This document shows, in pieces, positions 1 through 60,763 of a stretch of DNA of 64,000 nt. The DNA comes from Armatimonadota bacterium (lineage in GTDB: Bacteria; Armatimonadota; UBA5829; DSUL01). A program made the translations under genes and the position numbers. Location: positions 256,001 to 320,000 of the forward strand of contig JBDHZC010000003.1 of assembly GCA_039811685.1 (NCBI GenBank). Direction: 5' to 3'. The notes under the pieces are model-generated. The model was not told where the DNA came from and ran no database searches. It saw nothing but the letters and a program-made list of their open reading frames with translations. Positions within the stretch are counted from its first letter, which is position 1; every line of letters begins with the position of its first letter.

Positions 1-1467
1 ATCGTAGAAACTGCGCCCTGCTGGGGCCGCCTTGCCGTACCAGTTCTCATAAAAATCGTCGCATACAGCGTCCACGTCTGCGCTGGCGTTCCATTCCAGT
101 TTTGCACGCACGTAGCGGCTGAGTACTCCCGGCTCAGCCCAGACACTCCTTGCTTCGTCGTGGAATCCGATGAGGCCGGCTTTCTTGAGAAAAGGAATAT
201 CGCGTTTGAGTTTGCGAACCTCGGGAACCGGAGTGAGAGCAGATGCCAGCATGTTGTCGATGTAGCCGTACAGCCACACATTGTCGCTGAGTGCGCACCA
301 CTGCCGGATCATCTCTCCCATTCGTTCCTTCTGCCAGCAGTGAGGGTCATCGAAGGCGTGGATCGTGCAGCTCCAGATAGCCGCAAACATGATGACTTCG
401 TGATCGTTCAGTTTGACTCCGCGGGGCGGGAGAGTTCTGTTTGCATAGCCGTTGGTAGCGATGTAGACGTCTGGGAACTCTGAGCGAACCTCTTCTATCA
501 CTCTGTTTACGAACTGAAACCACTCTTCGCTGATGCTGACTTCGGAAGGCACGCCTGGCCGTCCGATCGGGTCTGTAAATCCTTGATTCAGTTTGCGTGC
601 CTGCGGACCCCAGTCACGTGGCATTCCGTCATCCGGAGCAAAAGCGAAGGATGTCCGCCCCGGATGCTGTCTGAAATAGTCTTTGATCTTCTCCGCCACA
701 GCTCTTGCCGCATCGGGGTTGGTGAGGCTTGGCATGTGGAAGTTCAGAGAGCCGTCCTGATTCTCAGCAAACAGCTCCGGGTGCGCTTTTGCTTCATCGC
801 CTTCAGGCAGCAGGTCCCTTATGCTGGAGTCGGTGGGAATCTTGAAGATGTCGTCGGGATTCATCTTGTTGCGGATTTTCCATCGCTTTTCCTGCTCTGT
901 GTATTTGGGCGGCGTGTGGCACCACCAGTTGCGCATGACAAAGTCCGGCCGTTCAACAATTGCCGTCGGTTCGAAAGAGACGCTGCGGTGTCTGGGTATG
1001 TACTCTCCAAACTCTCCAGGTGCGTACCAGCGCACGCCCAGCCTGTTCAGAAACTCATAAACCGCGTACTCCGTGCCGTGATAGGGGTCCGCGTCATTTC
1101 CCGCCAACACGAGGCGCTCGGGCGTGCAGAAGATGACAAAGCCCTCCTCGCGCCTGGCCGAAGTGACTCCGGATGGAATCCGGCTATCCCATGCCAGTGT
1201 AGCCTTGCTCCTGCCAACCAGAATTGCGCTTCCAGACAATGGCTGGTTGTCCTCCACAATCGGAAGCTTCGCTCCTGACATGGCTTCGATACAACGCTGC
1301 AGATCGGCGGCGGCCTCTCCGGTTTTCTCGCTCCTGACATCTGCGACGACGATAGTTGTCGCCGGGCTTCCATCTCGCACAACAACAAAGGGCTGAGCTG
1401 CAGCGCGTGCGCCCAGGCCGGCAGACAGAACGATGAGAATAGTTCGCAGAGTCTTGTAATATCGCAT
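1..1467 (-). CDS. Secreted DUF4838-like / glycoside hydrolase-like protein, truncated at the window edge
   Basis: Not in the ORF track. Read manually from ATG at 1467: MRYYKTLRTILIVLSAGLGARAAAQPFVVVRDG...AADLQRCIEAMSGAKLPI...LAGND..YHGTEYAVYEFLNRLGVRWYAPGEFGEYIP. Signal peptide plus a GH67/GH20 N-domain-like start typical of DUF4838 proteins. Confidence 0.75.
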   Translation of the reverse strand, partial: MRYYKTLRTILIVLSAGLGARAAAQPFVVVRDGSPATTIVVADVRSEKTGEAAADLQRCIEAMSGAKLPIVEDNQPLSGSAILVGRSKATLAWDSRIPSGVTSARREEGFVIFCTPERLVLAGNDADPYHGTEYAVYEFLNRLGVRWYAPGEFGEYIPRHRSVSFEPTAIVERPDFVMRNWWCHTPPKYTEQEKRWKIRNKMNPDDIFKIPTDSSIRDLLPEGDEAKAHPELFAENQDGSLNFHMPSLTNPDAARAVAEKIKDYFRQHPGRTSFAFAPDDGMPRDWGPQARKLNQGFTDPIGRPGVPSEVSISEEWFQFVNRVIEEVRSEFPDVYIATNGYANRTLPPRGVKLNDHEVIMFAAIWSCTIHAFDDPHCWQKERMGEMIRQWCALSDNVWLYGYIDNMLASALTPVPEVRKLKRDIPFLKKAGLIGFHDEARSVWAEPGVLSRYVRAKLEWNASADVDAVCDDFYENWYGKAAPAGRSFYD

Positions 1468-1836
1468 GTGGTTTCCTGTTGTCGTCGATTGCCAGAGGAA
1501 GTGTTGGTGACAATCCCATGTGCGTCCTCTCTTTGTCATACTTCTCTCAAATGCCGGTAGAAATGCTGTTTTTTCGCAGGCTGCCTGGCCTTTGACCTTG
1601 ACACACGAGTGTATTTGATAGACCATGACAGAGCAGTACGTATGGGCAGCGTCACGAACAACCGAGCGCTCCATCGCGCTGCGCCGCGCCAGCGTTGAGC
1701 CAGAACCAGTCTCTCTATTGCAGAGCTTGCTCAGCCATTTGGTGAAACGCTTCGCTACAACTCAACTTGGGCATTATAGCCTGAAATTCTGAGATAACCG
1801 GCCATCGTCGGCCAAATGACGAAGGAGAAGATGAGA

Positions 1837-2700
1837 ATGAACAGAGCAGTTTATGCCTGCATCGCAGCCTGTGCGCTGGCTGTTGTGCCGGTGCTGTCTC
1901 ATGCCGCGCCGGTATTTGGCACGATCAATAGTTCCAGCTCTCTGCCACCTGCAGGGTGGAGTGAGTACGGCGCGAGTGGAAATCCGAGCCCGGGCGTTAT
2001 TGCCAATCCTGACTATACGAAGCCCGGAGAAAGCAGCTCCAGTGAGGGCGCGATGTCCTATCTGGGCGAGGATGTTCTGAGCATCGAGCGCGCCAAAACA
2101 AAGGGTCCACACGGGTATCAGCAGTCGCTCTATGACCCTGATACCAACACCAACTATACTCACGTGACCCTTGAGTCAGAGTTTCGCGTCCGCTTCACCA
2201 ACAACACGGTGGGGAACCGGGGCGATGCCATTCTGGAGCTCGGTGTGCTTGGCGGCCCGACACTTGCCATTACCGCCAATGACAAAGACTATCCGTCCAT
2301 TGCCGACCATTACTGGTTCCGCCTGATTCAATACAGCACCAGTGCCGGTGTTGTCTCGACTCAGGAGATTATGCCTTTCCCACTCGTACCCGGAAGCACT
2401 CCGACTTCTGGCGAAAGCTACCAGGAGTCCAACTTTCATAGTGCAAAAATTGAGCTGAATGGCCCCCATGCGCTCGTATGGTGGGATGGCACGCTCATTC
2501 TGGACAGGGTTTTCACCGAGGGTCTGAACACTGCCGGTGGAAACGTCGCCTTTGGCGTAGGAACGCCCGTCAACAACGTGGGTGGCGCCAACGGCACAAA
2601 CTACTTCCGCAGTGTCACTCTGGTTCCTGAGCCGGGCAGTATGCTCACGCTGGGTGCAGGGGTGCTGGGCCTTTTGAGCGCACTGCGACGCAGACGCTGA
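1837..2700 (+). CDS. PEP-CTERM sorting domain protein with a beta-rich (lectin-like) passenger domain
   Basis: Signal peptide; C-terminus VPEPGS-hydrophobic helix-RRRR; SD GGAG 9 nt before ATG 1837. Confidence 0.93.
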   Translation: MNRAVYACIAACALAVVPVLSHAAPVFGTINSSSSLPPAGWSEYGASGNPSPGVIANPDYTKPGESSSSEGAMSYLGEDVLSIERAKTKGPHGYQQSLYDPDTNTNYTHVTLESEFRVRFTNNTVGNRGDAILELGVLGGPTLAITANDKDYPSIADHYWFRLIQYSTSAGVVSTQEIMPFPLVPGSTPTSGESYQESNFHSAKIELNGPHALVWWDGTLILDRVFTEGLNTAGGNVAFGVGTPVNNVGGANGTNYFRSVTLVPEPGSMLTLGAGVLGLLSALRRRR

Positions 2701-2727
2701 CTCAAGAGAACAATGTTCAACAATGCA

Positions 2728-2760
2728 GGAGGGAGCGCTGGGCAAATGCTGCCTCCCTCC
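2728..2760 (+). terminator. Intergenic hairpin (terminator/attenuator-like)
   Basis: GGAGGGAG...CTCCCTCC inverted repeat followed by a T-rich stretch. Confidence 0.55.
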
Positions 2761-2838
2761 CGCTTTCTGATCTTTTTATCTCACGCGTCCGCAGCGGATC
2801 TGAGCGCTGAGTCGACCGTTGAACTCGGAGAAGATTGA

Positions 2839-4266
2839 ATGAATAAGCTGTTTGTGGCTGTTGGCTGTACGGTTCTGATTTGCGCTGGGCCACGTCTCGG
2901 TTTTGCTGCGTGCGACCCGTGCCCTGACCCACAGATCCCCTACGGATTGACGGACGGCTCGACACTACCTGGCTGTCCGCTATGGAATCACTTGATCAAC
3001 TGCTATGGGCCCACGATCAACTTTGTCCGGATTGACGACCTCGGTGACGGCAACAAAGGCATCTTTATGCACAAGGACGACGACAACCGTCATCCGGGTC
3101 ACAGTCCTGTCAATGAGTATCGAGGTGAGCTTCTAGACGCAACAGAGTTGACGGCTTCCGCGCGATTCAGGGTGGACTACTGCAACAACCAGGCTATCTA
3201 CAAGGCCGGTGGAACCGGTGACGGCATGTTTCTTCTGCAGGTGAAATCCGGACTCTTTATTGACCTCGCAGACAAGGACTACTACAAAGGCCGGCCGGAT
3301 CACTACTGGTTCCGCCTCTATACTGTCACAGGGGCTGACAAGGACCACGTTGCTGACATTCAAGAGATTGATTTCAACGCGCAGCAGAAGTCGGGCTGGC
3401 ACACGATTCACGTCTACGTCAACTCTGGTACGTACATGGGACAAGTATTCTGGGATGGACTGGAGATATTCAACGGGCCGCTTCCCAGATCGGCCAGCGA
3501 GCTCAAGAGCCTTGAGTTCGGCCCGGCGCTGGTAGGTTTCAATGTCGGTGGCGCCATCAACGATACGACATGGGACTGGGTGAAGCTGGAGCAGGGCAAC
3601 ACTCTTGCTTTTGTGCCAGAAGCTGCGAGTATCGCATCAGCCAAGACCAGGCCAGACTTTACCTATCTGGCTTTGAACAATGTCGTTGTCAGCCGCGTCG
3701 GGTTTGACGGTTTCTGGGTTCAGCAGCAAGATCGCGCAGCAGGCATTCACGTGGTGACCAATCTCGAACACACAATGCCTGGAATCAGTGCCTCTGAAAA
3801 TCAGGTGGTCAATTTGGTCGGCACAGTACGTACACAGGGGTTGGAGCGCGTTTTTGTCGCCGACAGCATAGCGACCGTTGGGTCCGAGACTCCGGTTCCA
3901 CTCGGCACAAAGAATATCTCGGTTGGTGGTGAGAAAGTCGGCGGTGGAAACGGGCTTCCCGACGATGGCTTGCTTGTCAAGGTCTGGGGACGAATTACAG
4001 GGTATGACTTTATCTATTCCGGACCAGACGGCAATCCGGCCCCGTTTATCTACATTGATGACGGCTCTGGGGCAACCAACGATAGCCCGCTTGGGCTGGT
4101 GACTTCTCAGGTGCCGGGTCTGAAAGTCCTGACAGATCAGTTCCCATCCGGCCAACCGCAGTTCGCAACGGTCACGGGAATTGTTCGGCTTATGCCAGGT
4201 CCAAATAACACTGTGATGAGAGTCATTGATCTTTCCACAGTTGACTTCACAGATATCCCGCAATAG
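2839..4266 (+). CDS. Secreted protein: domain paralogous to the PEP-CTERM passenger plus an unnamed C-terminal domain
   Basis: Signal peptide; DKDY..DHYWFRL, V[FW]WDG and NVGGA motifs shared with 1837-2700; C-terminal region QQQDRAAGIHV...GLLVKVWGRITG...FIYIDDGSG. Confidence 0.8.
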   Translation: MNKLFVAVGCTVLICAGPRLGFAACDPCPDPQIPYGLTDGSTLPGCPLWNHLINCYGPTINFVRIDDLGDGNKGIFMHKDDDNRHPGHSPVNEYRGELLDATELTASARFRVDYCNNQAIYKAGGTGDGMFLLQVKSGLFIDLADKDYYKGRPDHYWFRLYTVTGADKDHVADIQEIDFNAQQKSGWHTIHVYVNSGTYMGQVFWDGLEIFNGPLPRSASELKSLEFGPALVGFNVGGAINDTTWDWVKLEQGNTLAFVPEAASIASAKTRPDFTYLALNNVVVSRVGFDGFWVQQQDRAAGIHVVTNLEHTMPGISASENQVVNLVGTVRTQGLERVFVADSIATVGSETPVPLGTKNISVGGEKVGGGNGLPDDGLLVKVWGRITGYDFIYSGPDGNPAPFIYIDDGSGATNDSPLGLVTSQVPGLKVLTDQFPSGQPQFATVTGIVRLMPGPNNTVMRVIDLSTVDFTDIPQ

Positions 4267-4280
4267 CGCTATCTCAAAAT

Positions 4281-4310
4281 GAGGCAGCCAGAACGAACCC
4301 TGGCTGCCTC
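4281..4310. other. Intergenic hairpin
   Basis: GAGGCAGCCAG-N8-CTGGCTGCCTC, a perfect 11-bp stem. Confidence 0.6.
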
Positions 4311-4333
4311 TCACTCTTCGGGATGCCTAGCCG

Positions 4334-5131
4334 ATGAAGAACTGGATTTCTGGAGATTCTGCAAACAAGGGGACTTGCAGGCGCGGCTCCGTGCGGGACA
4401 GGCGTGTTCCTTCGGTAGCCGACGACTTTCGGGGTCCTTATCTGCGCCGCTGCGGATTCACCTTGATTGAGCTTCTTGTGGTCATCGCGATCATCGCTAT
4501 TCTCGCGGCTATTCTCTTTCCGGTCTTTGCTCAGGCGCGTGCCCGCGCCAAGACTGCGAAATGCCAGTCACATCAAAAACAGCTTGTCGCAGCTCTGCTG
4601 ATGTACACAGATGACTACAATGGCCGCCTGCCGTGGATGAAGTTTCTCACCTACACCAACTACCGGATGCCGGACGGCTCAACTGTCCTGCTGCATCTCT
4701 ATGACCCGTACGTGAAGAATGACAACATCATCCTGTGTCCGTCGAAGATGGCCTACGCCTACAACGAATGCCTCATCAGCCCGCTCAGCAACAGTACGTA
4801 CGCCGGTACCGAGGCCTTCCGCTGGTCGTCGTTTCCCGGAACTGGCCGGGCTATGGGCGATATCGTTTCTCCTGCCGCCACTCCTGCGTTTATGGACGGT
4901 TTTCGCTACGAGAAAGACCCTTCCGGTCATCCGAATGGCTGGGGTTGGGAACCAGTGGACGGACTGAACAAAGACCGGATGATTAACCTGCACAACGACG
5001 GCGCCAACTATGCTTTTCTGGACGGGCATGTACGCTGGTTGAAGCCCGCAGGCAACGGCGTTTATGTTGCGGTGGAGGGAATTGATTATGACGGCAACGG
5101 TTCTACAGGCAGCGGACTCATTCTGCGCTAG
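4334..5131 (+). CDS. Prepilin-type N-terminal cleavage/methylation protein, DUF1559 family, with H-X9-DG motif
   Basis: [49 protein letters not shown]. Exact start codon uncertain. Confidence 0.92.
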
Positions 5132-5159
5132 TCCGGGCAGATTCCAAACCCGTACATGC

Positions 5160-5296
5160 GAAGAGCCTTCCCTGTTTACCAGAGAAGGCTCTCACAGTCC
5201 GCAGATTTAACGGCTGCGGATGCCCGTCAGAAAGGAGAAGGATGAAACGTCATTGCTCTTCGCTGTGCTGCAGTGGTGTGCCCTCACCCCTACATA
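5160..5296 (-). ncRNA. Candidate ECF-sigma-dependent small RNA (~135 nt)
   Basis: GGAAC-N17-CGTCAA promoter; unpaired CAUCCUUCUCCUUUC segment; 7-bp hairpin; 9-bp terminal hairpin AGAGCCTTC/GAAGGCTCT (5162-5192). Confidence 0.5.
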
Positions 5297-5300
5297 TATC

Positions 5301-5328
5301 TTGACGCCTCACCGCCCCAAATCGTTCC
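5301..5328 (-). promoter_or_regulatory. ECF-type promoter
   Basis: Minus strand reads GGAAC gatttggggcggtgagg CGTCAA. Confidence 0.5.
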
Positions 5329-5458
5329 TTCAATCTGACAATAAATAATTTCCGACGCCAGCGCAGACTCTTTCCGCTCCAAAATTCCTGCTCAGAGAAC
5401 GCCAATCTCTATCCTCGGCGGGTATCATCTGCATGCTCAAAGCTAAGGAGGCCCTCAG

Positions 5459-6418
5459 ATGAAAGCCATACGTGTCACCCAGTTCGGGGATCCGGAAGTT
5501 CTTCAACTCACGGAGGTCCCGGACCCTGTCCCCGGTTCCGGCCAGGTTGTAGTCCAGATCAAAGCTGCCGGTATCAACCCAGTTGACACCTACATCCGCT
5601 CAGGAGCCTACGGAGAGCGCCCGTTGCCGTACACTCCCGGATCAGATGGAGCGGGGACTGTAGAGTCGGTAGGCGAAGGCGTGAGTGGCATTCAGCCAGG
5701 AGACCGGGTTTACACCGCAGGATCTCTGAGTGGGACTTATGCTGAGAAAGCCCTCTGCGATGCCTCACAGATTCATCCTCTTCCTTCAAACATAAGCTTC
5801 TCTCAGGGAGCGGGCGTTTTTGTGCCTTTCGCTACCGCCCATTACGCACTCTACCACCGGGCAAAGGGTCTGCCTGGTGAATCCGTACTGGTGCATGGCG
5901 CAACAGGTGGCGTGGGGACAGCCGCTGTCCAGATTGCGCATGCCGGCGGTTTTGTTGTTTTTGGCACCGGCGGCACTGAGAGGGGGCGTGAACTGGTCGC
6001 GGAACAGGGCGCGGACTTTGTTCTGGACCATCACGCAGATGGTTATCTGGATGAAGCTGTCGCTTTGAACGGTGGTAAAGGTTTCGATGTCATCCTTGAG
6101 ATGTTGGCCAACGTCAACCTCGAGCGCGATCTCGAGCACCTGGCTGACAACGGGCGCGTCGCCGTAATCGGTAACCGGGGGACTGTTGAGATTGACCCGC
6201 GTCAGGCAATGCGCCGGGATGCTTCTATTCTGGGCGTTCTTCTTATGAACGCTGACGAAAAAACGGCTGCAGGCATCCACGCAGCGCTTTTCGCCGGATT
6301 GTCAAATGGCGCTCTGAAGCCCATTGTCGGCAGAGAGCTTCCGCTTTCTGCGGCCGCCCAGGGGCATGCGGACGTCATGGCTGCCGGGGCCTACGGGAAA
6401 ATCGTGCTGATTCCCTGA
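5459..6418 (+). CDS. NADPH:quinone reductase (zeta-crystallin/MDR family)
   Basis: GINPVD, PYTPGSDGAG, VLVHGATGGVG, C-terminal GKIVL. Confidence 0.93.
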   Translation: MKAIRVTQFGDPEVLQLTEVPDPVPGSGQVVVQIKAAGINPVDTYIRSGAYGERPLPYTPGSDGAGTVESVGEGVSGIQPGDRVYTAGSLSGTYAEKALCDASQIHPLPSNISFSQGAGVFVPFATAHYALYHRAKGLPGESVLVHGATGGVGTAAVQIAHAGGFVVFGTGGTERGRELVAEQGADFVLDHHADGYLDEAVALNGGKGFDVILEMLANVNLERDLEHLADNGRVAVIGNRGTVEIDPRQAMRRDASILGVLLMNADEKTAAGIHAALFAGLSNGALKPIVGRELPLSAAAQGHADVMAAGAYGKIVLIP

Positions 6419-6427
6419 ATCCATCAC

Positions 6428-7195
6428 TCAGCGCGCCAGCGCCGAGGTCGTCTTTGAGTTGCTCCCAGAGGACTGAATTGCGAGGTCATTCTGTTGTCGC
6501 AGTTTCACGACCCGGATAGTGTGGCCCTCCCACACCTCACTGGCGCTGATTCCGGTCACACTTACAGTGTCGTAAAGCGCAGGAGGTTGGATCGGTTCGT
6601 TGCCGCTGCCGGTTTCCTGGTAGTCGTAGCTGATTCGCACACCATACGGCCCGTACCCATCCAGCAATCGCTCCCCGTCGTCAATGTAGAAAAACCGATT
6701 GAAGTAGTTGATGTGCGTGACGACTCCCCATGTCGCCACGAGTAACCCTTTGTTGTATGGGCCTGTTGGCTTTGGAAGGTTCACGCCAGGCATTTCAAGA
6801 CTCTGTAGCGTTCTGGCATTTCCACCGAGGCTGCTGGCCCGCATGGTGAGGGGGCGCGGCAGGTCAGATGCAGGCGCTGGCGTGACCGGCGAGTTATAGA
6901 GTTGCAGATACGTCTCATCGGTGGCAGGGTCAACGCTCAGCAGCCCCTCGAGTTGGACGCGATCTCCGCGCCTGACACCGGCCGGATAGGAGTCTGCAGA
7001 GCGAACCTGAAGACCGAGTGTCCGCTCTGTGTTCTGAGCATAGAACACACCGTAGCGAAAATCCTGAAGCTCTGAATTGCTATCCGACGTGACTGTCATA
7101 TCGCCCAGCCTCACGAACACCTGGGGCGCAGCTTCGGCGAAGCCGCTGGGCGCCAACCAAAGAGTCAGAATGAGGGTGTAACACAGGTAACGCAT
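6428..7195 (-). CDS. Secreted stand-alone copy of the unnamed C-terminal domain
   Basis: Signal peptide followed by FYAQNTERTLGLQV...GDRVQLEG...PRPL...NKGLLVATWGVVT...FFYIDDG...GVRI...VSVTGIS. Confidence 0.75.
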   Translation of the reverse strand: MRYLCYTLILTLWLAPSGFAEAAPQVFVRLGDMTVTSDSNSELQDFRYGVFYAQNTERTLGLQVRSADSYPAGVRRGDRVQLEGLLSVDPATDETYLQLYNSPVTPAPASDLPRPLTMRASSLGGNARTLQSLEMPGVNLPKPTGPYNKGLLVATWGVVTHINYFNRFFYIDDGERLLDGYGPYGVRISYDYQETGSGNEPIQPPALYDTVSVTGISASEVWEGHTIRVVKLRQQNDLAIQSSGSNSKTTSALAR

Positions 7196-7205
7196 CTGCA
7201 ATCTC

Positions 7206-7234
7206 AGCGTACTGTCAACCTGCTACCCTGTCAA
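7206..7234 (-). promoter_or_regulatory. Sigma70 promoter giving a near-leaderless transcript
   Basis: TTGACA-N17-TACGCT ending 10 nt before ATG 7195; no SD. Confidence 0.6.
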
Positions 7235-7268
7235 GAAAAAAGAGGGACTGCGCGAGCAGCCCCTCTTC
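7234..7268 (-). terminator. Intrinsic terminator of the RCC1-repeat gene
   Basis: AGAGGGGCTGC-TCGC-GCAGTCCCTCT followed by a T-run on the minus strand. Confidence 0.8.
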
Positions 7269-7297: not shown

Positions 7298-9274
7298 TTA
7301 GGAGTGAATGCGGATGTTTCCGAGTTTGAGCTGAGTCGTGCTGTCCGGAGTTGAAGAGTCCGGCTGTCCCATCTGGTTGTCATAAACGACATCTCCAGAA
7401 GCGTTCATGATTTTAATCCGCAGCTTGTCTTTGCCGCCGGCTATGGAGCCGTCAATGCCCGTCAGGAGATAGCTGTACCCCGCGTTACCGTTGAGTTTTC
7501 CACTGCCTTTGATCTGAACGCGCCCGCCCGAGATCACCAGCCATTCCATGTCCGTACTGTTGAAAACAACGCCCAGAGTGACATAGTTGAACGTGCGGTC
7601 ACCACTCGGTGTGGCATTATCGCCGCGGTAGCGCGACGCAAAGACAAACAGCCCCGGGCCGTGCAACCCCGGGCTGGCGACGTAAGCGCCGGCAGGAGAC
7701 GTAATCCACCCGGAACCTGTCACGTAACCTGCTGCAGGGTCGTAGACCACAACATACGCATTGGCAGGCCCGTTTGGAGTCTGCACAGTATCAGTTACGA
7801 TCTGGTTGTTTCCGGAGTCTGAGGCTATGAGTTTGACATCGTAAACGCCGGCCTGCGTAAAGGCATACGTGCCGCTAATATCTCCGGTGTTCTGATCAAC
7901 AGTCGCAGTTGCGCTTGATGATGCGGATGGGCTCTGGAATGACCACAGCGCGGAGACGATGCTCTGGCAACCGCCAGTGGACGTCCCACTCAGGGTCACA
8001 GGGGTGTTGACCTTATACACGGATTCCGGCTGCGGACCTGTGATAGCCACGGTTGGGGCTGCGCCGCCTATCGGGCCTGTCGGCAGGCCGACACCACTCA
8101 GATCCTGCACCTGGGCTGGTACTGGCTCACCGCCGATATACAGATTGTTCAGCGGCGTTACGGTTCCACGCCCAAGCTGGCCGTAGTCGTTGCGTCCCCA
8201 GCCCCAGACAGTGCCATCGTCTTCAACCGCAAGGCTGTGTCCCTGGCCTGCGGCTATGGCAACAACATTAGAGACTCCCGATACGAGAGTGGGAGAACTC
8301 AGTCCATAGGGACCATTTATGTCATAAAATCCGCACTGACCAAAGGCTGTGTGTCCCCACGCATAGACGTTGCCATCCGCCGTGAGAGCCAGGCTGTGCG
8401 CGTTGCCTGCTGCAATCGCAACGACGTTGGAAAGTCCGGGCACTTCAGTTGGCACATTGGAAATGCCGCCCTCAAATCCGCGTCCAAGCTGCCCGCGGTC
8501 GTTCTTGCCCCAGGCTAGCACCTTTCCGTCCGCTGCCAGCGCCAGGCAGTGATCGCCGCCCGCCGCAATGGCAGTAATGTTCGTTGGGCCATTGACGAGC
8601 GTAGGGGATGCTGCGTAGTTGCTGGGCGCCGTTGAGTACCCAAGCTGCCCATATTCATTCAGCCCCCATGTGAAAATCGTCCCGTCGCTGGCAAGCGCGA
8701 TGCTGTGGGAGTTTCCACCACTCACCGAGATAAACGTCGGTTGCGGAATTGTGACCGGATTGGCGGCGTTCGTTGTGCTGCCGTCACCAAGCTGGCCGTA
8801 ATCGTTCAGGCCCCAGCTTTCCAGATTCCCACCAGAGAGCGCAAGCCCAAAGGAGTTTGCGGCGCTCAGCGAGCCCGCGCCCGTGATTCCTATCGCCGTT
8901 GGCAACGAGAGGTTTCCGGAAACCGCTCCATTGCCCAGCGCTCCGTAGGTCTGCGATCCCCACGTTAGCACCTCGCCATTGGACTGGCGCACGCCGGCGC
9001 TGATGCCGTTGCCAGCGGATACGCCGGTCATACCGCATAGCCCCTGCACCTGAGCCGGGACAAGACTGTCAATCAGCGACCCGTTTCCGAGCTGCCCAAA
9101 GTTGTTCTGGCCCCACGCCCAGACAGAACCGTCTGTTTTTAGCGCCAGAGAGTGTGTCGTTCCGGCGCCAATGGGTTTGTAGTCAGTAGCAAATGCCCCG
9201 GGCGCCACTGTTGACAACAGCGCAACGCCCAGGATAGCTGAAATTAGACGCATCACCAATCTCCTCTCGAACAT
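7298..9274 (-). CDS. Secreted RCC1-repeat (BLIP-II-like beta-propeller) protein with PKD/Ig-like C-terminal domains
   Basis: About seven repeats of AG..HSLAL..DG.V..WG.N..GQLG; YAFTQAGVYDVKL; VVYDPAAGYVTGSGWI. Confidence 0.9.
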   Translation of the reverse strand: MFERRLVMRLISAILGVALLSTVAPGAFATDYKPIGAGTTHSLALKTDGSVWAWGQNNFGQLGNGSLIDSLVPAQVQGLCGMTGVSAGNGISAGVRQSNGEVLTWGSQTYGALGNGAVSGNLSLPTAIGITGAGSLSAANSFGLALSGGNLESWGLNDYGQLGDGSTTNAANPVTIPQPTFISVSGGNSHSIALASDGTIFTWGLNEYGQLGYSTAPSNYAASPTLVNGPTNITAIAAGGDHCLALAADGKVLAWGKNDRGQLGRGFEGGISNVPTEVPGLSNVVAIAAGNAHSLALTADGNVYAWGHTAFGQCGFYDINGPYGLSSPTLVSGVSNVVAIAAGQGHSLAVEDDGTVWGWGRNDYGQLGRGTVTPLNNLYIGGEPVPAQVQDLSGVGLPTGPIGGAAPTVAITGPQPESVYKVNTPVTLSGTSTGGCQSIVSALWSFQSPSASSSATATVDQNTGDISGTYAFTQAGVYDVKLIASDSGNNQIVTDTVQTPNGPANAYVVVYDPAAGYVTGSGWITSPAGAYVASPGLHGPGLFVFASRYRGDNATPSGDRTFNYVTLGVVFNSTDMEWLVISGGRVQIKGSGKLNGNAGYSYLLTGIDGSIAGGKDKLRIKIMNASGDVVYDNQMGQPDSSTPDSTTQLKLGNIRIHS

Positions 9275-52952: not shown

Positions 52953-53495
52953 CTCAAGCTCTCCTTCATCAATCGCAGTTTTTGTCTGAGGGATACTGTA
53001 CGTGCAGCACTGCTCTGTCAATATCCGAGTGGTTCTTGACAAAAGCCCTCCCTCGGCGCACAGTTCTCCTGAGCAAAGAGGCAAAAAACTTGTACCGGAG
53101 GGAACCGCTCGCCCAAACGCTGTCGTAAACTGTTCTAAGGCGAGTTATGGCGATAGGTAGTCGTCCAGCTTACTGCCGTATCGCAAGTCTCTCCACTCCG
53201 CGTTACTGCTTGCGGGATGCGGAAAGTCCTCAAGCTTCGCGCACATTTGAGGCATAATCCAAGGGTACGGTGCTGGTTATCTTACTGTGTTGCTCACCGG
53301 GCGCTTGATAGTAGCCAGTCCCCAATTACAATAATAAGTGCGGAGCATGCTCCGGGTCTGTAGTGGCTGGTGTAAGGATCTCCTGAAAGGGGAAGAGCGT
53401 CACGGTCTGGCCTGCATGCCGTGCGCATGGCTCTGCACAAGCTGGGTTCACTCTGGCGGCGTTGCCCCGAGAGTTCTTGGGGGAGGATTCGTAAT

Positions 53496-54530
53496 ATGTC
53501 AAAGATTCGCTGGTTGTTTGCTCTAACTGCAAGCCTGTCTCTGCTGGCGGGCGCGGGAGTCCGGGCTATGGACGTGCCTCTCCCTGCGCCGGCCGTAGCT
53601 GTCCCCGCGCATGAGGCCACGCCGGTACCGGCTGCGCCTGTGGCAGCGCCGATCGCCGGTGTACACGAAGCCTCTCCGCTGCCTGGAGCGAACTATCTTG
53701 TCGCACCTGACGACGTCCTCCAGTTCAGTGTTTGGGGAGAGCAGCAGATGCAGGGGCTCTACCTGCAGGTCACGCCGGAAGGGACGATCAACGCGCCGGT
53801 TGTCGGAACTATTCCCGCCGCAGGACGGACGGTATCGCAGATTAAAGATGACATAGCCCACAAGTTCGTGGAGCTCGATTATCTACGAGATCCGATTGTC
53901 CAGCTTACACTTTACTCTGTACACAAGATGCGCGTTCGGGTGCTCGGACAAGTTCAGCGGCCTGGCCTGCAGCTGATGCGGGATGGTGACAGAGTTGACC
54001 AGGCTATCGCTGATGCGGGCAGCTTCATTCCCGATACGGCAGGTTTGGCCAAGACCACTATTACACGAATTGGAGAGTCTCACCCGATCAATGTTGACCT
54101 GGCAGCTTTCTACAACGGTGGCGACCTCAGTCAGAACATCGTCCTCAAGGAAGGCGATTCCATTTATATTCCAGAGGACACGGAGAACCGTTTCTACGTG
54201 ATGGGATATGTTCAGCAGCCGCGCATGTTCCCACTGAAGCCAACGACCACGGTCACTGAGGCCGTGTCGCAGGCCGGAGGCCCCATCAAGCGTGGGTCAC
54301 TTGGCCGAACGGTAGTTATCCGGAAGGCACAGGACGGCAAACCCGCTGAGCGGATTCCCGTGGATGTGGCCAAAATTCTCGAGACGGGTGACACAACCCG
54401 GGACATTCGTCTTCAGCCTGGAGATGTAGTGCTTGTGCCAGAGACCAAATCGCCCGATATAGGCACTATAGGACAGGTTCTGAACGCGCTGTTCAACGTT
54501 TCTTATCTATCTAAGATCGGATTCTTCTAG
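53496..54530 (+). CDS. Polysaccharide export protein (Wza-like, SLBB domains)
   Basis: Poly_export motif YLVAPDDVL..VTPEGTINAPVVG; two SLBB repeats; LQPGDVVLVP. Confidence 0.9.
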   Translation: MSKIRWLFALTASLSLLAGAGVRAMDVPLPAPAVAVPAHEATPVPAAPVAAPIAGVHEASPLPGANYLVAPDDVLQFSVWGEQQMQGLYLQVTPEGTINAPVVGTIPAAGRTVSQIKDDIAHKFVELDYLRDPIVQLTLYSVHKMRVRVLGQVQRPGLQLMRDGDRVDQAIADAGSFIPDTAGLAKTTITRIGESHPINVDLAAFYNGGDLSQNIVLKEGDSIYIPEDTENRFYVMGYVQQPRMFPLKPTTTVTEAVSQAGGPIKRGSLGRTVVIRKAQDGKPAERIPVDVAKILETGDTTRDIRLQPGDVVLVPETKSPDIGTIGQVLNALFNVSYLSKIGFF

Positions 54531-54635
54531 ACAGGGAGAGCCGGTCGAGGAGGTTGTCTTCGCGGTCAGTGGGCCGCTGATTCAGAATTGCCGAAGGTAG
54601 CGCGAGAGCCGCCTTTCGGTCGGAGGTCACCAGCT

Positions 54636-56774
54636 TTGGAGCTCTGGAGATATTTTAGAATTCTATACCGCCGCAAATGGCTCATCATCGTTGGCATGGT
54701 GTTGTGCGTCGGGATTGCGGCCTATCTGGCGATAGCCCAGGAGCCGAAATATACGGCGTACATTCACGTCGTGCAGCAGATGCCCGATACAGCGGGCCAA
54801 ACGGTCTATCCAGAGAGCATCTACACGGGAGTCGACAACGACATGCGCCTGGCGAACCTCGCGACCATCGCGACCAGCGCTGACGTTCGAATGCTGTTGT
54901 TCGACAAGCTCCGCAACTCTCAGGACCTGATGGGGTTGAAGGGCTATCCAGGCGCTGATCCCGACAAGTTTGATGAGTTCTGGCAGGGAGTGCAGGTCTA
55001 CCCTGAGCGCGGCACGCAGTTTGTCCGCATCAACGTGACTTCTCCGAACATGCAACTGTCGCGAGAGACTGCGAAGGTTCTGGCGAGTACATTTGAGACC
55101 TACTATCAGGATAACGTCTTCAATCCCTCGAGAGTGACTGAGAATCTCCGCACACAGGTCGAGGACGCTCGCCAGAGGATGCAGAAAGCGCTCAACGCGA
55201 TGGCGGAGTACAAGAGGACCCACAGTGTTAATGACCTGAGCGCCAACACACAGGCGCGAATCAGCCGCTTGAGCGATATGGAGACTCAGTGGCATGTGGC
55301 GCAGGTCACGGCGCAGGAGAATGCCAACCGTTTGCGCACCCTCACTGAGCAACTTAAAAAGCAGCCATTTATGCGAAAAGAGGGGCAGCAACTCGGCGAG
55401 AACCAGCTCTGGGTGACCTACAGGAACCAGCTTACACAGAGAGAACAGGACCTGGCTGCTATGATGGCGCACCGGGGGCCTGCTCACCCGGAGGTTAAGG
55501 CTCTCCAGGAGAGCATTAATGATCTCAAATCGCAGCTAGCAACAGAGCAGCAACGCAAACTACTCACTGAGACAGAGGGCGTAAACCCCGTTTACACCCA
55601 GGCGTTGTCAAATGTGATTAGCGCCAAAGCAGATACCATCGGCTCGCAGGCGCGGGCGCAGGCGTTGGCGGCTGTTGTCCCGCAGATGCGAGCACAACTG
55701 GCGAACTATCCTGAGGATGAGCGAGCTCTGTCGAATCTGGCAGTGGAAGCCAAAGCCTCCCAGGATGCCTACGGAATGTTGCGTCAGAAGTTTGAAGAGG
55801 CGCGCGTGCGAGAGGCGGAGCCGTACAAAGCAGGTATCATTAAAGTCGTCGAAGAGGAGGCGACTCCTGTTCCTGTTACCTCCACAAAGCGCCTCCAGAT
55901 TGCGCTTGCTCTCCCTCTGAGCATTCTCCTGTCCTGCGCTATCATCTTTCTGCTCGATTATCTGGACAACTCTATTCGATCGCCTGAAGAGGTTGAAGAG
56001 CTGCTTGGGCTGCCGGTGTCCGCTATGGTTGCCCTTGGCAAGGGTCATTCCATGATCCGTGGTAAGTCCGACCCGGGGCTTCGAGAGTCGTTCCAGATGC
56101 TGGCGTCGTCGCTTTGGCACCAGAAGGTGGAGCATTCAGGCAGTGGAGCAATCCTTGTCGCCAGCGCTGAGCCGGATTCCGGCCGCACGGTCGTCGCGGG
56201 CAATCTGGCCGCGAGTCTGGCCGCAGATGGAGCGCGTGTCATCCTCGTTGATGCAGATATGCGTCAGCCGCACCAGCATCTCGTCTTTGGTCTTGACAAT
56301 AGCAAGGGCTTCAGCAACCTGCTGGCCGGCAGCGCTAAGATCGAAGATGTCGCTTTGCCGACCAAGGTCGAAGGGCTGCTGCTGATCCCGAGTGGCCCGT
56401 TGCCGGATAACCCCATGCGGCTGCTGCGAAGTGACGCTATGCGTCATTTCGTCGAAGAAGCCTCTGGCGTGGCGGACTTTGTGATATTTGACAGTCCCGC
56501 CGGCGCGGCGTTTGCCGATCCAACAGTTATCGCGGCCTACGTTAAGCAGGTGCTGCTTGTGCAGTCTGCCGGCAGGGTGCCGCGGGGGGCCGAAAACGAG
56601 TTCCGCTCACGTTTGGAGCAGATTGGCGCGGAGTTTGTGGGTGTGGTTCTCAACAAGGTTCGTCCCGACGATAGCCACAGCATCTATCACTTCCGCACAG
56701 CTTATGGCAGGCTGCCAGGGTCTACGCCACCGGCGGGATCCCTGGGGTCGACAAGTCCTGCCATTCCGGGTTAG
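54636..56774 (+). CDS. Polysaccharide co-polymerase / BY-kinase (Wzc/GumC-like)
   Basis: RRKW plus TM, coiled coil with HPEV, second TM, LVDADMR, VIFDSP; Walker A reads GRT. Confidence 0.9.
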   Translation: MELWRYFRILYRRKWLIIVGMVLCVGIAAYLAIAQEPKYTAYIHVVQQMPDTAGQTVYPESIYTGVDNDMRLANLATIATSADVRMLLFDKLRNSQDLMGLKGYPGADPDKFDEFWQGVQVYPERGTQFVRINVTSPNMQLSRETAKVLASTFETYYQDNVFNPSRVTENLRTQVEDARQRMQKALNAMAEYKRTHSVNDLSANTQARISRLSDMETQWHVAQVTAQENANRLRTLTEQLKKQPFMRKEGQQLGENQLWVTYRNQLTQREQDLAAMMAHRGPAHPEVKALQESINDLKSQLATEQQRKLLTETEGVNPVYTQALSNVISAKADTIGSQARAQALAAVVPQMRAQLANYPEDERALSNLAVEAKASQDAYGMLRQKFEEARVREAEPYKAGIIKVVEEEATPVPVTSTKRLQIALALPLSILLSCAIIFLLDYLDNSIRSPEEVEELLGLPVSAMVALGKGHSMIRGKSDPGLRESFQMLASSLWHQKVEHSGSGAILVASAEPDSGRTVVAGNLAASLAADGARVILVDADMRQPHQHLVFGLDNSKGFSNLLAGSAKIEDVALPTKVEGLLLIPSGPLPDNPMRLLRSDAMRHFVEEASGVADFVIFDSPAGAAFADPTVIAAYVKQVLLVQSAGRVPRGAENEFRSRLEQIGAEFVGVVLNKVRPDDSHSIYHFRTAYGRLPGSTPPAGSLGSTSPAIPG

Positions 56775-56783
56775 GCGCTTTGA

Positions 56784-56819
56784 CGGACGGGCAACTGCAA
56801 GCGCGCAGTTGCCCGTCCG
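56784..56819. other. Strong intergenic hairpin
   Basis: CGGACGGGCAACTGC-N6-GCAGTTGCCCGTCCG; no U-tract. Confidence 0.7.
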
Positions 56820-57011
56820 CTGACGTTCCTGATCGCGCTACAGCGCTTCTGTGCGCAACGCGCCCGTAGCCCAAAGAGAACGCGTGGGAACTTCGGCATG
56901 TGTGTCTGAGTATCACTTATAGTAAGCGTGTTGGGACAACGCGGCAGTCAAGCACAGGTGCTCTGAGCGATATGCCCGCCGCCGCAGACTTCGCGAAACA
57001 CATCTTTTCAT

Positions 57012-57701
57012 ATGGGAGAAAGCACGTCACTGACACAAGCATCCGAAGGAGAATCAGCGGCTGTGAAAGCCCTGGATGCTGCTGAGACTGTGGCCGAAAG
57101 GCCCGGATATGAGCTTGCGAAGCGCATAGTTGACATTATTGGCGCGTCGCTGCTGCTGGTGTTGTTCTCCCTTCCAGCTGCCGTGATTGCGGTACTCATC
57201 AAATTGGATGACCCTGGGCCTGTTATGTTCAAGCAGGTTCGCGTAGGACGCTTCGGCCGTCTGTTTACTATTTATAAATTCCGCACGATGATTTCCGACG
57301 CTGAGAAGATGCAAAAGGAATTGGAGAAGTACAACGAAGCCGGTGGCGCCTACTTCAAGCTGAAGAACGATCCGCGTGTGACCAAAGTCGGAGCGGTACT
57401 GCGCAAACTGAGTCTGGATGAGATACCGCAGTTCATAAATGTACTGACTGGAGACATGAGTCTCGTCGGGCCGCGCCCGCTGCCTGTTACAGGCTATGAG
57501 AATGAATCGTGGTATGTGCGCAAGGCCAGTGTGCCGCCTGGAATGACCGGGCTCTGGCAGATTAGCGGACGCTCAGACCTTTCAGGCGAGCAGGCGGCAG
57601 AACTGGATTTGCGCTACGTCGAGCGTCGCAGTTTCCTTTATGACCTGAAGTTAATGTGCGCGACTGTACCCGCAGTTCTCTTTCGCAAGGGCGCGGCGTA
57701 A
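57012..57701 (+). CDS. Priming sugar transferase (Bac_transf)
   Basis: [40 protein letters not shown]. Confidence 0.95.
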
Positions 57702-57843
57702 GGCAGTTGATGCCAGGACTTAGTGGCTGTCGCTCATATTTCTATCCGGGTGTTGATAGAGTCTCTGCTCTCCTGGGCAAGAAATCCGGAAGCGGTGGAA
57801 TGGATGAGAGGAAGGCCGTGCGAATGACTACGGAGGTGACTTC

Positions 57844-58734
57844 TTGAGCACGAATGTGCAACAGGCTGAAACGGCGCCGTCAAATGGCGTGCTGACAACG
57901 GCGGCCAGGCACTGGGTAGAGTTGCTTGCGTGGCTGGCGCTGATAGTTTTCTGGATTCCCACATTCGCCAATTTTGTTGCGGCGTGGGACAGCCCGGACG
58001 GCTACTACTCACATGGGTGGCTTATTCCGTTTATGTGTCTATGGACCGCCTGGATGCTGCGAGACCGCGTCCGGAGCTTGACGTTGCGGCCAAGCCTGTG
58101 GGGAATGGGCGCGCTGGCTCTATTACTTGCAGCGGCGGCTTTGTTCGGGATACAGAGCAGCTTCACAATGCGCGGCTTGATGTTCCCTGTCAGTCTGGCT
58201 GCGTTTGTGGCTGCCTTGTACGGGTGGAGTTATGTCCGGTCATTTGTTTTCCCCATCTTCTATCTGTACTTTATGTGTCCGATCCCGGACTTCATCCTGC
58301 TGAGTTTGTCGGCGAAGATTCAGCTGTGGTCAACGACGATCGCCACCTACATGTCCAAAGCGATTCTCATTAATGCAGTCCAGAATGGAAACTTCATTCA
58401 GACTGACTACTGCAATATTGAAGTTGGGCAGGCCTGCAGTGGTTTTAGAATGCTGGTGGCGCTAACAGCGTTCGCGGTTTTTCTCGTTTACGCTGTAAAG
58501 GGCGACACCTGGCGCAAAATCTTCTTTGTTCTGCTCTCGATGCCGCTCGCTGTCCTTGTAAACTCTCTTCGAGTTGCTATCCTGGTAGCGGTTGGCCACT
58601 ACTGGGATCCTAATCTGGTCAGCAAGCTGCACGATTATTCTGGCTATCTGGTGCTGCTCGTAGCGTTTGTTCTAATGTATTGGTTAGCGAGGTTACTTGG
58701 ATGTCGCGAGTTCAGACTCACGGAATCGTCCTGA
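57844..58734 (+). CDS. Exosortase
   Basis: YYSHGWLIP, EVGQACSG (Cys), NSLRV (Arg), LHDYSG (His); multiple TM helices. Confidence 0.93.
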   Translation: MSTNVQQAETAPSNGVLTTAARHWVELLAWLALIVFWIPTFANFVAAWDSPDGYYSHGWLIPFMCLWTAWMLRDRVRSLTLRPSLWGMGALALLLAAAALFGIQSSFTMRGLMFPVSLAAFVAALYGWSYVRSFVFPIFYLYFMCPIPDFILLSLSAKIQLWSTTIATYMSKAILINAVQNGNFIQTDYCNIEVGQACSGFRMLVALTAFAVFLVYAVKGDTWRKIFFVLLSMPLAVLVNSLRVAILVAVGHYWDPNLVSKLHDYSGYLVLLVAFVLMYWLARLLGCREFRLTESS

Positions 58735-59333
58735 TCTTCCTGATCGGGTTGTTCACCGCTGTCAACGTGATTGGCAGCAAAGCAAAGGGAAAAGAACCTC
58801 CCCAGGTTGAGATGGCCACGTGGGTGCCGCTGGATATAAGCGGCTGGACGGGCACAAATGAAACTCCTCCGTCGGTTTGGAGTGAACAGCTCCCGCACGC
58901 TAACTTTCTCGTACGCTACTACACTAAGGGGCCTGCTGTCGTCGAGCTGCTAATGATTCAGAGCGCTGATCCGGGCAGTTTTCACAATCCGATGTTTTGC
59001 CTGCCGGGCAGCGGCTACAACACCATAGACTCCGGCGTACAATCCCTGCCTCACGGAGACGTCTCGCAGGGAGAGTTCAGTAAGTCTTTCGAACAGTTGA
59101 TAGTGCGCTACTGGTACGTAGCTGGTCCGAGACAGACTCCGAATCTCTGGAATCACAAGTGGAATATCTTCTGGAATAAGATTTCCGGCAACCACGGGGA
59201 CAACCTTTCATTCCGTGTGACCGTTCGGGATGCTGGAGGAGAGGACCCGGGCAAGGTCGCGAATGATTTCTCGGATCTGGTGCTGCAGGAAGTCCAGAAG
59301 AAGCTCACCGATGGACGCGTAGCCGTCAGGTAG
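58701..59333 (+). CDS. EpsI-family exosortase-associated protein
   Basis: PLDISGWTG, RYY, HNPMFCLPGSG, RYWY; overlaps the exosortase gene. Confidence 0.88.
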   Translation: MSRVQTHGIVLIFLIGLFTAVNVIGSKAKGKEPPQVEMATWVPLDISGWTGTNETPPSVWSEQLPHANFLVRYYTKGPAVVELLMIQSADPGSFHNPMFCLPGSGYNTIDSGVQSLPHGDVSQGEFSKSFEQLIVRYWYVAGPRQTPNLWNHKWNIFWNKISGNHGDNLSFRVTVRDAGGEDPGKVANDFSDLVLQEVQKKLTDGRVAVR

Positions 59334-59342
59334 TGCACTATC

Positions 59343-59966: not shown

Positions 59967-60090
59967 GGTTGCGCTGACGTAGCGTCGGCCAGGAGCCGTC
60001 GATGTCTGTCACGGCGAATGAAAACGTTCACGGGCAGGCCAGGCAACAGCGCGGCTTGAGCGAGCAGTTTTTTCAGGGGGTACACCAGAC

Positions 60091-60678: not shown

Positions 60679-60763
60679 TCGCCATACATGTTCAATAAAG
60701 CCGATCCGATAGTGCTTGAATCCCACGGCTGCTCGCGCGACCGCTGGTCGCTAGAAGCTCAAG

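Follow-up and report, generated by a model that had tools for sequence, protein, structure and literature searches.

What does it mean when two adjacent genes encode exported proteins with homologous passengers and different tails, one of them a known surface-sorting signal? The question is raised by a stretch of 64,000 nucleotides from an Armatimonadota bacterium (GTDB lineage Bacteria; Armatimonadota; UBA5829; DSUL01; assembly GCA_039811685.1, contig JBDHZC010000003.1, positions 256,001 to 320,000), referred to here at its full length as the window. In it, gene A ends in PEP-CTERM, the tail processed by exosortases, its neighbor gene B ends in a module of about 200 residues, and gene C, on the opposite strand, encodes the same module alone (Table 1). 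In keeping with the lineage, the nearest relatives of the genome's LepA, at 85% and at 70 to 73% identity, come without exception from metagenome-assembled genomes assigned to Armatimonadota. The answer that we favor, and to which we would give an even chance, is that the module is a non-covalent retention module binding an exosortase-dependent surface or matrix component and is not a cleaved sorting signal.

Gene A is laid out as a signal peptide, a beta-rich passenger of about 240 residues, and a PEP-CTERM tail. Its translation contains ESEFRVRF, DKDYPSIADHYWFRL, FHSAKI..VWWDG, NVGGA, and LVPEPGSMLTLGAGVLGLLSALRRRR, the last of which forms the C-terminal end. The tail matches Pfam PF07589 over residues 263 to 286 (23.8 bits; cutoff, 20.7) as well as NCBIfam TIGR02595 (18.8 bits; cutoff, 16), and the protein thus combines the two features expected of a PEP-CTERM substrate, a curated C-terminal motif and an exosortase in the same genome. 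The translation of gene B contains ARFRVDY, DKDYYKGRPDHYWFRL, HTIHV..VFWDG, NVGGA, and FVPEAASIASAK, followed by FWVQQQDRAAGIHV, PVPL, GLLVKVWGRIT, FIYIDDG, and ATVTGI. The two passengers align with an E value of 5e-10 (31% identity over 155 columns), and the switch from passenger to tail falls at nearly the same point, with VPE of gene B at residues 259 to 261 and the PEP-CTERM match of gene A starting at residue 263. A whole-genome search with the gene B passenger returned gene A as its sole other match (E of 8.1e-6), and gene B as the query against the genome contigs revealed no related locus. The gene B passenger was not detected in any of the 40 other genomes of the class that were searched; therefore, A/B-type genes turn over fast. 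The passenger of gene A reached 19 bits against the Pfam family 3keto-disac_hyd/DUF1080, below its cutoff of 26.8, and gene B matched neither this family nor any other Pfam family at an E value of ≤1e-5; the shared passenger may be a ConA-like jelly-roll. We also considered VPE at the junction of gene B as a relic of a PEP-CTERM tail and dropped the idea, since just 4 of the 84 proteins that carry the module have a similar PE-like motif in front of it.

Gene C carries the module at residues 20 to 240 of its 257-residue form (family profile E of 8.4e-44). It matches no Pfam or NCBIfam family, and a search for homologues yielded one relative at 61% identity. Its N terminus scores 1.86 on our signal-peptide heuristic, just below the threshold of 2.0. 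Compared directly with the tail of gene B by BLASTP, gene C gives a weak match (E of 4e-4, 22% identity), and the homology of the two is secure only through the family profile, which recovers them at E values of 3e-42 and 8.4e-44. A preliminary description of this locus, made by reading the sequence, had proposed the three open reading frames (ORFs), the motifs quoted above, the PEP-CTERM end of gene A, the homologous passengers, and the coincident switch of tails, all of which were confirmed here. Its further claim that the tail of gene B is the domain found in gene C holds at the level of the family, although not convincingly in the pairwise comparison.

To collect the family, every stop-to-stop frame of the genome that contains the window (3.42 Mb in 15 contigs) was searched with a profile in repeated rounds until convergence, and an alignment of 80 module copies (alignment A1) was the basis of an AlphaFold2 model. 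This model consists of two beta-barrels, with a predicted local distance difference test score of 88.9 and a predicted template modeling (TM) score of 0.86. Each barrel is a canonical OB-fold, with VIA-align Z scores of 11 to 12 and root mean square deviations of 2.0 to 2.6 over 80 to 90 residues to RPA, the anticodon-binding domains of AsnRS/AspRS, and YgiW. Foldseek assigned a probability of 1.0 to RPA70, Pot1, and YgiW, of which YgiW covers one barrel (TM-score, 0.72). Over the whole module, the best matches were tandem OB-fold DNA binders, namely RPA70 DBD-A/B (E of 1.4e-5), Pot1, Deinococcus/Thermus SSB, and HIN-200, at low TM-scores of 0.3 to 0.43. In profile searches of the PDB, the second barrel matched RPA14 (E of 1.5e-5), and the first matched the N-terminal domain of a solved endonuclease/exonuclease/phosphatase (EEP) protein, 9sf8/9sf9 (3.8e-5), and YgiW, 1nnx (1.4e-3). 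On the strength of the model and these matches, we predict with confidence that the module is two OB-folds in tandem.

No Pfam model covered the module in the 80 carriers scanned (E value of ≤1e-5), apart from tRNA_anti-codon in a single carrier, L109 (32.2 bits; cutoff, 27), and no NCBIfam model attained its cutoff on any of the 80 copies. Among the matches listed in a full-text literature search on Armatimonadota or Armatimonadetes together with PEP-CTERM, exosortase, or secreted OB-fold C-terminal domains, we found no description of the module. Copies begin with a consistent motif, S-I-G-E-A-K-x-L-x-D-G-x-x-V-x-L, and end in a loose R-x-x-S-D-I with a handful of variable residues behind it; the C termini of the carriers showed no shared final residue, hydrophobic segment, or cluster of charges. 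The module is acidic (median isoelectric point [pI], 5.15; median net charge, −4), with a pI of >8 in 5 of 82 copies. Its conserved columns are mostly Gly, together with Tyr33, the one strongly conserved aromatic, Asp38-Arg39, Glu76-Arg77, Asp148-Gly149-Ser150, and Pro, and three are basic (columns are numbered as the gene B residue minus 260, with consensus residues shown; gene B itself has Trp at 33). To judge from this pattern, the conserved positions seem to resemble a sugar, metal, or protein site more than a DNA-binding face. A two-copy complex prediction from alignment A1 scored 0.00, a value that speaks neither for nor against self-association or a lattice.

The window's genome encodes 84 carriers with one module copy each. 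In 69 of these, the module ends 0 to 11 residues from the stop codon, and in another 5 it ends 12 to 50 residues from it, while the remaining 10 continue for 168 to 470 residues. Signal-peptide-like N termini were found in 76 of the 84 (gene calls and signal-peptide calls are both crude heuristics, the latter based on hydrophobicity and charge). A recognized Pfam domain is present in 50 of the 80 carriers scanned, and the cargo is varied: Peptidase_S8 (4 carriers), GHL10, GH39, GH10, alpha-amylase, glucoamylase, arabinofuranosidase, Glyco_hydro_cc, beta-helix/NosD, Amidase_2, Amidase_3, Exo_endo_phos, Metallophos, PQQ propellers, GSDH, FGE-sulfatase, NAGPA, LTD, and others, with at least nine glycoside-hydrolase-type families and two amidases. 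There are also short carriers that are little more than the module. In a library of 1.84 billion proteins, the profile matched 9,940 cluster representatives at an E value of ≤1e-3 and 2,798 at ≤1e-30. Among the best 150 of these matches, 99 have a single matched stretch and 51 have two to six; the top three have three stretches each (467 to 541 bits), and those with one or two stretches score no higher than 241 bits. Of the 99 with a single stretch, 77 end within 15 residues of the C terminus, and in 15 the protein continues for more than 60 residues beyond the module. Most other genomes of the class have from 20 to at least 77 copies. Among 151 sampled genomes of the phylum, at least 21 module matches were found in 11 of the 13 other class members, and outside the class 26 of 137 genomes had one or two weak matches only.

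These counts bear on what the preliminary description had predicted of a sorting domain. High copy number and diverse cargo were borne out, as were the guess of a tandem OB-like fold and the absence of a characterized family. Strict C-terminal position was not, given the 10 carriers with long extensions here and the multi-copy proteins elsewhere. The expected pairing with signal peptides mostly holds, in 76 of the 84 carriers by the crude heuristic.

Several carriers have further features of their own. An extension of about 170 residues follows the module in L044 (C6:76717-79173), L054 (C7:164450-167215), L109 (C6:58-1161), and L114 (C5:205406-207082). Four carriers have a segment outside the module with homology to the core of the PEP-CTERM protein encoded at C4:335395-336030, and the best match of this kind is the 170-residue extension of L054 (27.5% identity over 160 residues); therefore, one small domain is found behind the OB module in some proteins and in front of a PEP-CTERM tail in another. 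A 102-residue ORF, C12:1679-1984, is almost a copy of the C-terminal end of L110, another carrier, with 5 differences in the last 45 residues; it appears to be either the product of a recent partial duplication or a fragment from the assembly.

The exchange of tails between genes A and B recurs elsewhere in the genome. PEP-CTERM yielded 42 matches, 34 of them above the Pfam cutoff, and all 42 have a plausible PE-containing motif, a hydrophobic stretch, and a basic tail. These proteins are smaller than the carriers (median of 251 residues and range of 171 to 623, versus a median of 820). Among 48 small passengers compared, the best and only homologue of 5 of the 10 small carriers was a PEP-CTERM protein, and in 4 of these 5 cases the two genes are adjacent. 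The four adjacent tail-swapped pairs are A/B (31% identity), one on contig 6 (69 to 72%), one on contig 5 (63%), and one on contig 8 (31%), and they are unrelated to one another at the BLAST level. Thus, five unrelated passenger families occur in both tail forms, four of them as adjacent pairs, and one passenger with two tails side by side is an arrangement that recurs in separate families, of which A/B is one instance.

PEP-CTERM genes and carriers are also neighbors more often than expected. Measured between gene edges, the distance to a carrier is at most 300 bp for 16 of the 42 PEP-CTERM genes, compared with 37 of 845 other signal-peptide-like genes (38% versus 4.4%; odds ratio of 13, P = 1.4e-10) and 84 of all 2,328 other crude gene calls. 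A carrier lies within 1 kb of 17 of the 42 motifs, whereas 2,000 trials with random positions averaged 4.5 and peaked at 13. The 22 adjacencies involve 18 PEP-CTERM genes, with gaps of 5 to 832 bp and the same strand in 17; passengers are homologous in 6. Recognizable PEP-CTERM neighbors are of carbohydrate-binding types (Laminin_G_3, CBM_4_9, and X25 starch-binding). G144, a closed genome from another genus of the same family, shows the same tendency: a carrier is found no more than 300 bp from 9 of its 45 PEP-CTERM genes (P = 0.004) and no more than 1 kb from 12 of them, whereas 3,000 trials with random positions averaged 4.3 and peaked at 11. One local arrangement, seen at L207 (C4:296082-296765), places a PEP-CTERM protein of 228 residues that contains a pullulanase X25 starch-binding domain between carriers L068 and L077, one of which is an alpha-amylase; by analogy, it is reminiscent of the pairs of surface binder and enzyme in starch-utilization loci.

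Phylogenetic profiling, which the preliminary description had suggested as a way to find partner machinery, led to exosortase and to no dedicated machinery of the module's own. Across 41 genomes of the class, the module (E value of ≤1e-20) and exosortase occur together in 37, neither was found in the same 4, and none is discordant. The four double-negative genomes (G108, G117, G157, and G158) represent three genera and two families and are 88 to 99% complete. They have no PEP-CTERM match, and each retains one to three Wza-type polysaccharide exporters; therefore, the joint absence is not a general loss of surface-polymer machinery. The window's genome has three exosortases (PF09721 matches of 190 to 196 bits), and exosortase is present in 109 of the 151 phylum genomes sampled.

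Building on the fold, copy number, position statistics, cargo diversity, neighborhood enrichment, tail-swapped pairs, and exosortase co-occurrence, we propose that the module is a portable, non-catalytic unit at the end of an exported protein that would hold its cargo non-covalently in a cell-surface layer or extracellular matrix by binding one shared component. That component would depend on the exosortase/PEP-CTERM system and would be the exopolysaccharide that goes with it, a modification carried by processed PEP-CTERM proteins, or the layer of those proteins as a whole. On this view, the PEP-CTERM tail and the OB tail would lead to one destination by different routes, the exosortase route serving small non-catalytic binding proteins and the OB-tail route serving larger proteins, many of them recognizable enzymes. 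The A/B pair would have arisen by duplication and tail exchange, and gene C would be the module exported alone. We infer a binding module, rather than a cleaved signal, because of the internal copies, repeated copies, module-only proteins, and featureless C termini; that it acts in the compartment that PEP-CTERM proteins occupy is suggested by the tail exchange, the gene neighborhood, and the phylogenetic profile. Of the two roles named in the preliminary description, binding or anchoring has therefore become more likely and a cleavable PEP-CTERM-like sorting signal less so, as the module is not strictly C-terminal, is multi-copy in some proteins, and lacks a hydrophobic or charged terminal signature.

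Several observations weigh against this proposal. The strongest is the terminal bias itself, since having 69 of 84 copies within 11 residues of the stop codon exceeds what a free binding module needs and is expected of a sorting signal. Most carriers have no PEP-CTERM neighbor, with 18 PEP-CTERM genes involved for 84 carriers, and in G135, a genome from another family, the neighborhood enrichment is weak: of 16 PEP-CTERM genes, 2 have a carrier within 300 bp, which is not significant, and 6 have one within 2.5 kb (P = 0.004). Outside the class, exosortase is common without the module (97 of 137 genomes encode exosortase, and 26 of the 137 have one or two weak module matches only). Within the class, the genomes are related, and the co-absences count as roughly three independent events, not as 41 independent observations. 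Moreover, G154 has exosortase and 30 PEP-CTERM matches but two modules, and G175, of the same class, likewise has exosortase and two modules, where most relatives of these two have 20 to 77. Any dependence therefore looks one-way, and both genomes are natural contrasts for what the module adds.

The same terminal bias is the best argument for reading the module as an export or sorting signal, recognized by an outer-membrane translocon or processing enzyme in the manner of the C-terminal domain of the type IX secretion system (T9SS) and perhaps removed later. Such a signal would account for the 69 near-terminal copies and 76 signal-peptide-like N termini, for the 77 of 99 single-copy proteins in the global best 150 that end within 15 residues of the C terminus, for the module's place in the PEP-CTERM slot on sister genes, and for its co-occurrence with exosortase. 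We nevertheless consider it unlikely, because 168 to 470 residues follow the module in 10 of 84 carriers, multi-copy proteins exist, module-only forms have nothing to sort, carrier ends show no conserved residue, hydrophobic stretch, or charge cluster, and a two-barrel fold of 200 residues is neither a short signal nor a sandwich of 80 to 100 residues. No candidate machinery was identified, although no search aimed at PorV, PorU, or SprA was made. A version closer to our proposal, tentative and on balance rather unlikely, would have the OB tail serve as the docking partner in a second display system dependent on exosortase, whose scaffold would be processed PEP-CTERM proteins, a glycan attached to them, or both. 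The 20 to 80 OB-tailed proteins of each genome, many of them recognizable enzymes, would plug non-covalently into this scaffold to form a lineage-specific, cellulosome-like enzyme layer, with the side-by-side pairs of one passenger and two tails as its adaptors. In a narrower form of docking, in the style of cohesin and dockerin, the OB tail would bind the passenger of the neighboring PEP-CTERM protein as its anchored receptor. The enrichment of PEP-CTERM genes as immediate, mostly co-directional neighbors of carriers and the small size and non-catalytic nature of their products would fit, yet BLAST sorts the 42 PEP-CTERM passengers into 37 clusters, of which 32 have a single member, and the passengers therefore share no common receptor fold at the sequence level. 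With only 18 PEP-CTERM genes beside carriers against 84 carriers, with 6 of 22 adjacencies pairing a carrier with a homologue of its own passenger, which duplication explains better than a receptor and ligand, and with a functional pairing of binder gene and enzyme gene able to explain adjacency without physical contact, we regard this narrower form as decidedly unlikely.

It is very unlikely, in our judgment, that the carriers share no localization role at all and that the module is a stable domain (a generic substrate-binding unit, solubility aid, or spacer) spread by recombination through a fast-evolving secretome, its link to PEP-CTERM reflecting shared duplication hot spots. Turnover is indeed fast, the A/B passenger having been detected in none of the 40 other genomes searched; for 8 of the 84 carriers, a second carrier lies no more than 300 bp away, and paralogue pairs at 64 to 72% identity suggest recent duplication or gene conversion. 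A single substrate-binding function, however, would misfit a cargo of proteases, amidases, nuclease-type domains, and many glycosidase families, and neither the excess of PEP-CTERM genes over other exported-looking genes as carrier neighbors (38% against 4.4%) nor the concordance of module and exosortase in 41 of 41 class genomes would be expected. Least probable of the explanations weighed is nucleic-acid binding, by which the module would tie enzymes to extracellular DNA of a biofilm matrix. This idea derives from the structural matches, in that the best whole-module hits are the tandem OB-fold DNA binders listed above (RPA70 DBD-A/B at 1.4e-5, Pot1, Deinococcus/Thermus SSB, and HIN-200) and the first half is like the N-terminal domain of an EEP protein and, weakly in 2 of 80 copies, like ExeM/NucH nucleases. 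Whole-module TM-scores of 0.3 to 0.43 are low, however, the module is acidic (median pI of 5.15, net charge of −4, and a pI of >8 in 5 of 82 copies), and its top conserved positions are Gly, Asp-Gly-Ser, Glu-Arg, and Pro, with one strongly conserved aromatic column and three basic ones; the link to exosortase would also be left unexplained. Simple electrostatic DNA binding was set aside because of the acidity.

The positions of the features discussed are collected in Table 1. The window's own exosortase, which presumably processes PEP-CTERM proteins such as the product of gene A, belongs to a complete-looking exopolysaccharide locus. No carrier adjoins any of the genome's three exosortase genes, the nearest lying about 18 to 55 kb away. 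As to the promoter earlier proposed for gene C, consensus hexamers do follow a hairpin, although the element falls below promoter-scan thresholds. The 13-pair, terminator-like hairpin was assigned to the preceding RCC1-repeat gene. The −10-like hexamer ends 10 nucleotides ahead of the ATG of gene C; therefore, the transcript would be leaderless or nearly so if the promoter is real. No obvious Shine-Dalgarno sequence was seen upstream of gene C (7196-7268, minus strand). Between genes B and C, positions 4334-5131 (plus strand) encode a pseudopilin-like protein with a prepilin-type N-terminal methylation motif and a weak DUF1559 match. The flanks encode exported-looking proteins without either tail, namely an RCC1-repeat propeller protein of 658 residues (7298-9274, minus strand) and a DUF4838 protein (1-1674, minus strand).

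Table 1. Features of the window discussed in the text (positions count from the first nucleotide of the window)
Feature	Position	Strand	Details
Gene A, exported protein of 287 residues	1837..2700	+	ORF and translation; alternative start at 1816
PEP-CTERM motif of gene A	2623..2694	+	VPEP, hydrophobic helix, RRRR; PF07589 and TIGR02595; C3:258623-258694 in the whole-genome scan
Gene B, exported protein of 475 residues	2839..4266	+	Passenger homologous to that of gene A, then predicted tandem OB-fold module
Predicted tandem OB-fold module of gene B, residues 264-469	3628..4245	+	Family profile E of 3e-42; ends 6 residues before the stop codon
Gene C, 255 residues (257 from TTG at 7201)	6428..7195	-	Module alone after a hydrophobic, signal-peptide-like N terminus; 17-residue tail
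Intergenic region upstream of gene C	7206..7268	-	Hairpin 7268-7239; TTGACA 7234-7229; 17-nucleotide spacer; TACGCT 7211-7206; consensus matches only
Exosortase/exopolysaccharide locus	53421-63501	+	Complete-looking: Poly_export 53421-54530; Wzz and P-loop kinase 54588-56774; Bac_transf (priming sugar transferase) 57012-57701; after DUF3485, uridine-kinase-like PRK, SIS, Polysacc_synt flippase 60764-62296, and type I phosphodiesterase 62293-63501
Exosortase (EpsH family)	57844..58734	+	PF09721, 189.5 bits (cutoff, 25.7); one of the genome's three
DUF3485 (EpsI-type) protein adjoining the exosortase	58680..59333	+	PF11984, 71.3 bits; within the polysaccharide synthesis/export part of the locus, 53421-62296

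To our knowledge, exosortase/PEP-CTERM systems are widespread, what they assemble on the cell is poorly understood, and Armatimonadota have barely been studied experimentally. Against this background, the module is a very large domain family without a Pfam or NCBIfam entry, with 9,940 cluster representatives and mostly 20 to at least 77 copies per genome across one class, and it is tied to exosortase in three independent ways, by tail exchange, gene neighborhood, and phylogenetic profile. As far as we can tell, all three of these ties are new here. The module offers a way to annotate thousands of exported enzymes encoded in environmental genomes, and on its own, with gene C as a natural example, it would be a defined reagent with which to probe the composition of an exosortase-dependent surface layer. 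If it proves to be a general retention tag, it could serve as a tool for surface display. If the docking-system version were true, it would for the first time assign a concrete, testable function to the structures that exosortase systems assemble.

Among known systems, the T9SS C-terminal domain of Bacteroidota (Por_Secre_tail) is likewise a lineage-restricted, folded domain at the extreme C terminus of dozens of unrelated exported enzymes per genome. That domain is a single small beta-sandwich, whereas the module is a predicted tandem OB-fold of about 200 residues that is not strictly terminal and may be repeated or free-standing. Por_Secre_tail had no Pfam match in the 80 carriers (E value of ≤1e-5) and was not among the 15 NCBIfam families listed for the 80 copies (E value of ≤0.1). 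With the PEP-CTERM/exosortase (EpsH) system, the module shares the C-terminal slot on homologous passengers and a gene neighborhood, and within the class sample it occurs only in genomes with exosortase. The PEP-CTERM tail, however, is a motif of about 25 residues with a transmembrane helix and a basic cluster, whereas the module is soluble, acidic, folded, and 200 residues long; the cargo differs as well, PEP-CTERM proteins being non-catalytic with a median of 251 residues and carriers having a median of 820 residues and a recognized Pfam domain in 50 of 80. The NCBIfam "choice-of-anchor" domains, known from D. Haft's family descriptions, are passenger families that occur with alternative C-terminal localization tails. 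Passengers of the A/B type behave similarly, except that the alternative tail here is not a recognized sorting signal, and no named choice-of-anchor family in NCBIfam matches gene A or gene B.

In fold, the closest single-domain relative is the BOF family (PF04076), whose YgiW/YdeI members are bacterial extracytoplasmic proteins with a periplasmic OB-fold (PDB 1nnx; Foldseek TM-score of 0.72, VIA-align Z of 11.5, and profile E of 1.4e-3). The BOF/YgiW models stay below cutoff (PF04076, 14.7 bits against 25.8; TIGR00156, 13.1 against 108), with weak matches in 5 to 6 of 80 copies at E values no better than 6e-4, and BOF proteins are single free-standing barrels, whereas the module is a fused pair. 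Secreted EEP and ExeM/NucH nucleases (PDB 9sf8/9sf9) have an N-terminal OB-like domain that matches the first barrel (E of 3.8e-5). Theirs is N-terminal, single, and confined to one enzyme class, in contrast to a module that is tandem, mostly C-terminal, and found on many enzyme classes. The family model NF033681 (ExeM_NucH_DNase) matched 2 of 80 copies weakly and over the OB part only (best E of 0.0036), which places none of them in that family. SLH, cell-wall-binding, and dockerin-type modules are non-catalytic, hold diverse exoenzymes non-covalently at the surface, and may sit at either protein end or be repeated. The fold of the module is unrelated to theirs, and no SLH or dockerin Pfam match was found in the 80 carriers scanned (E value of ≤1e-5). 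Overall, although a member of none of these families, the module would, by analogy, work most like the T9SS C-terminal domain or the retention modules of the SLH and dockerin type.

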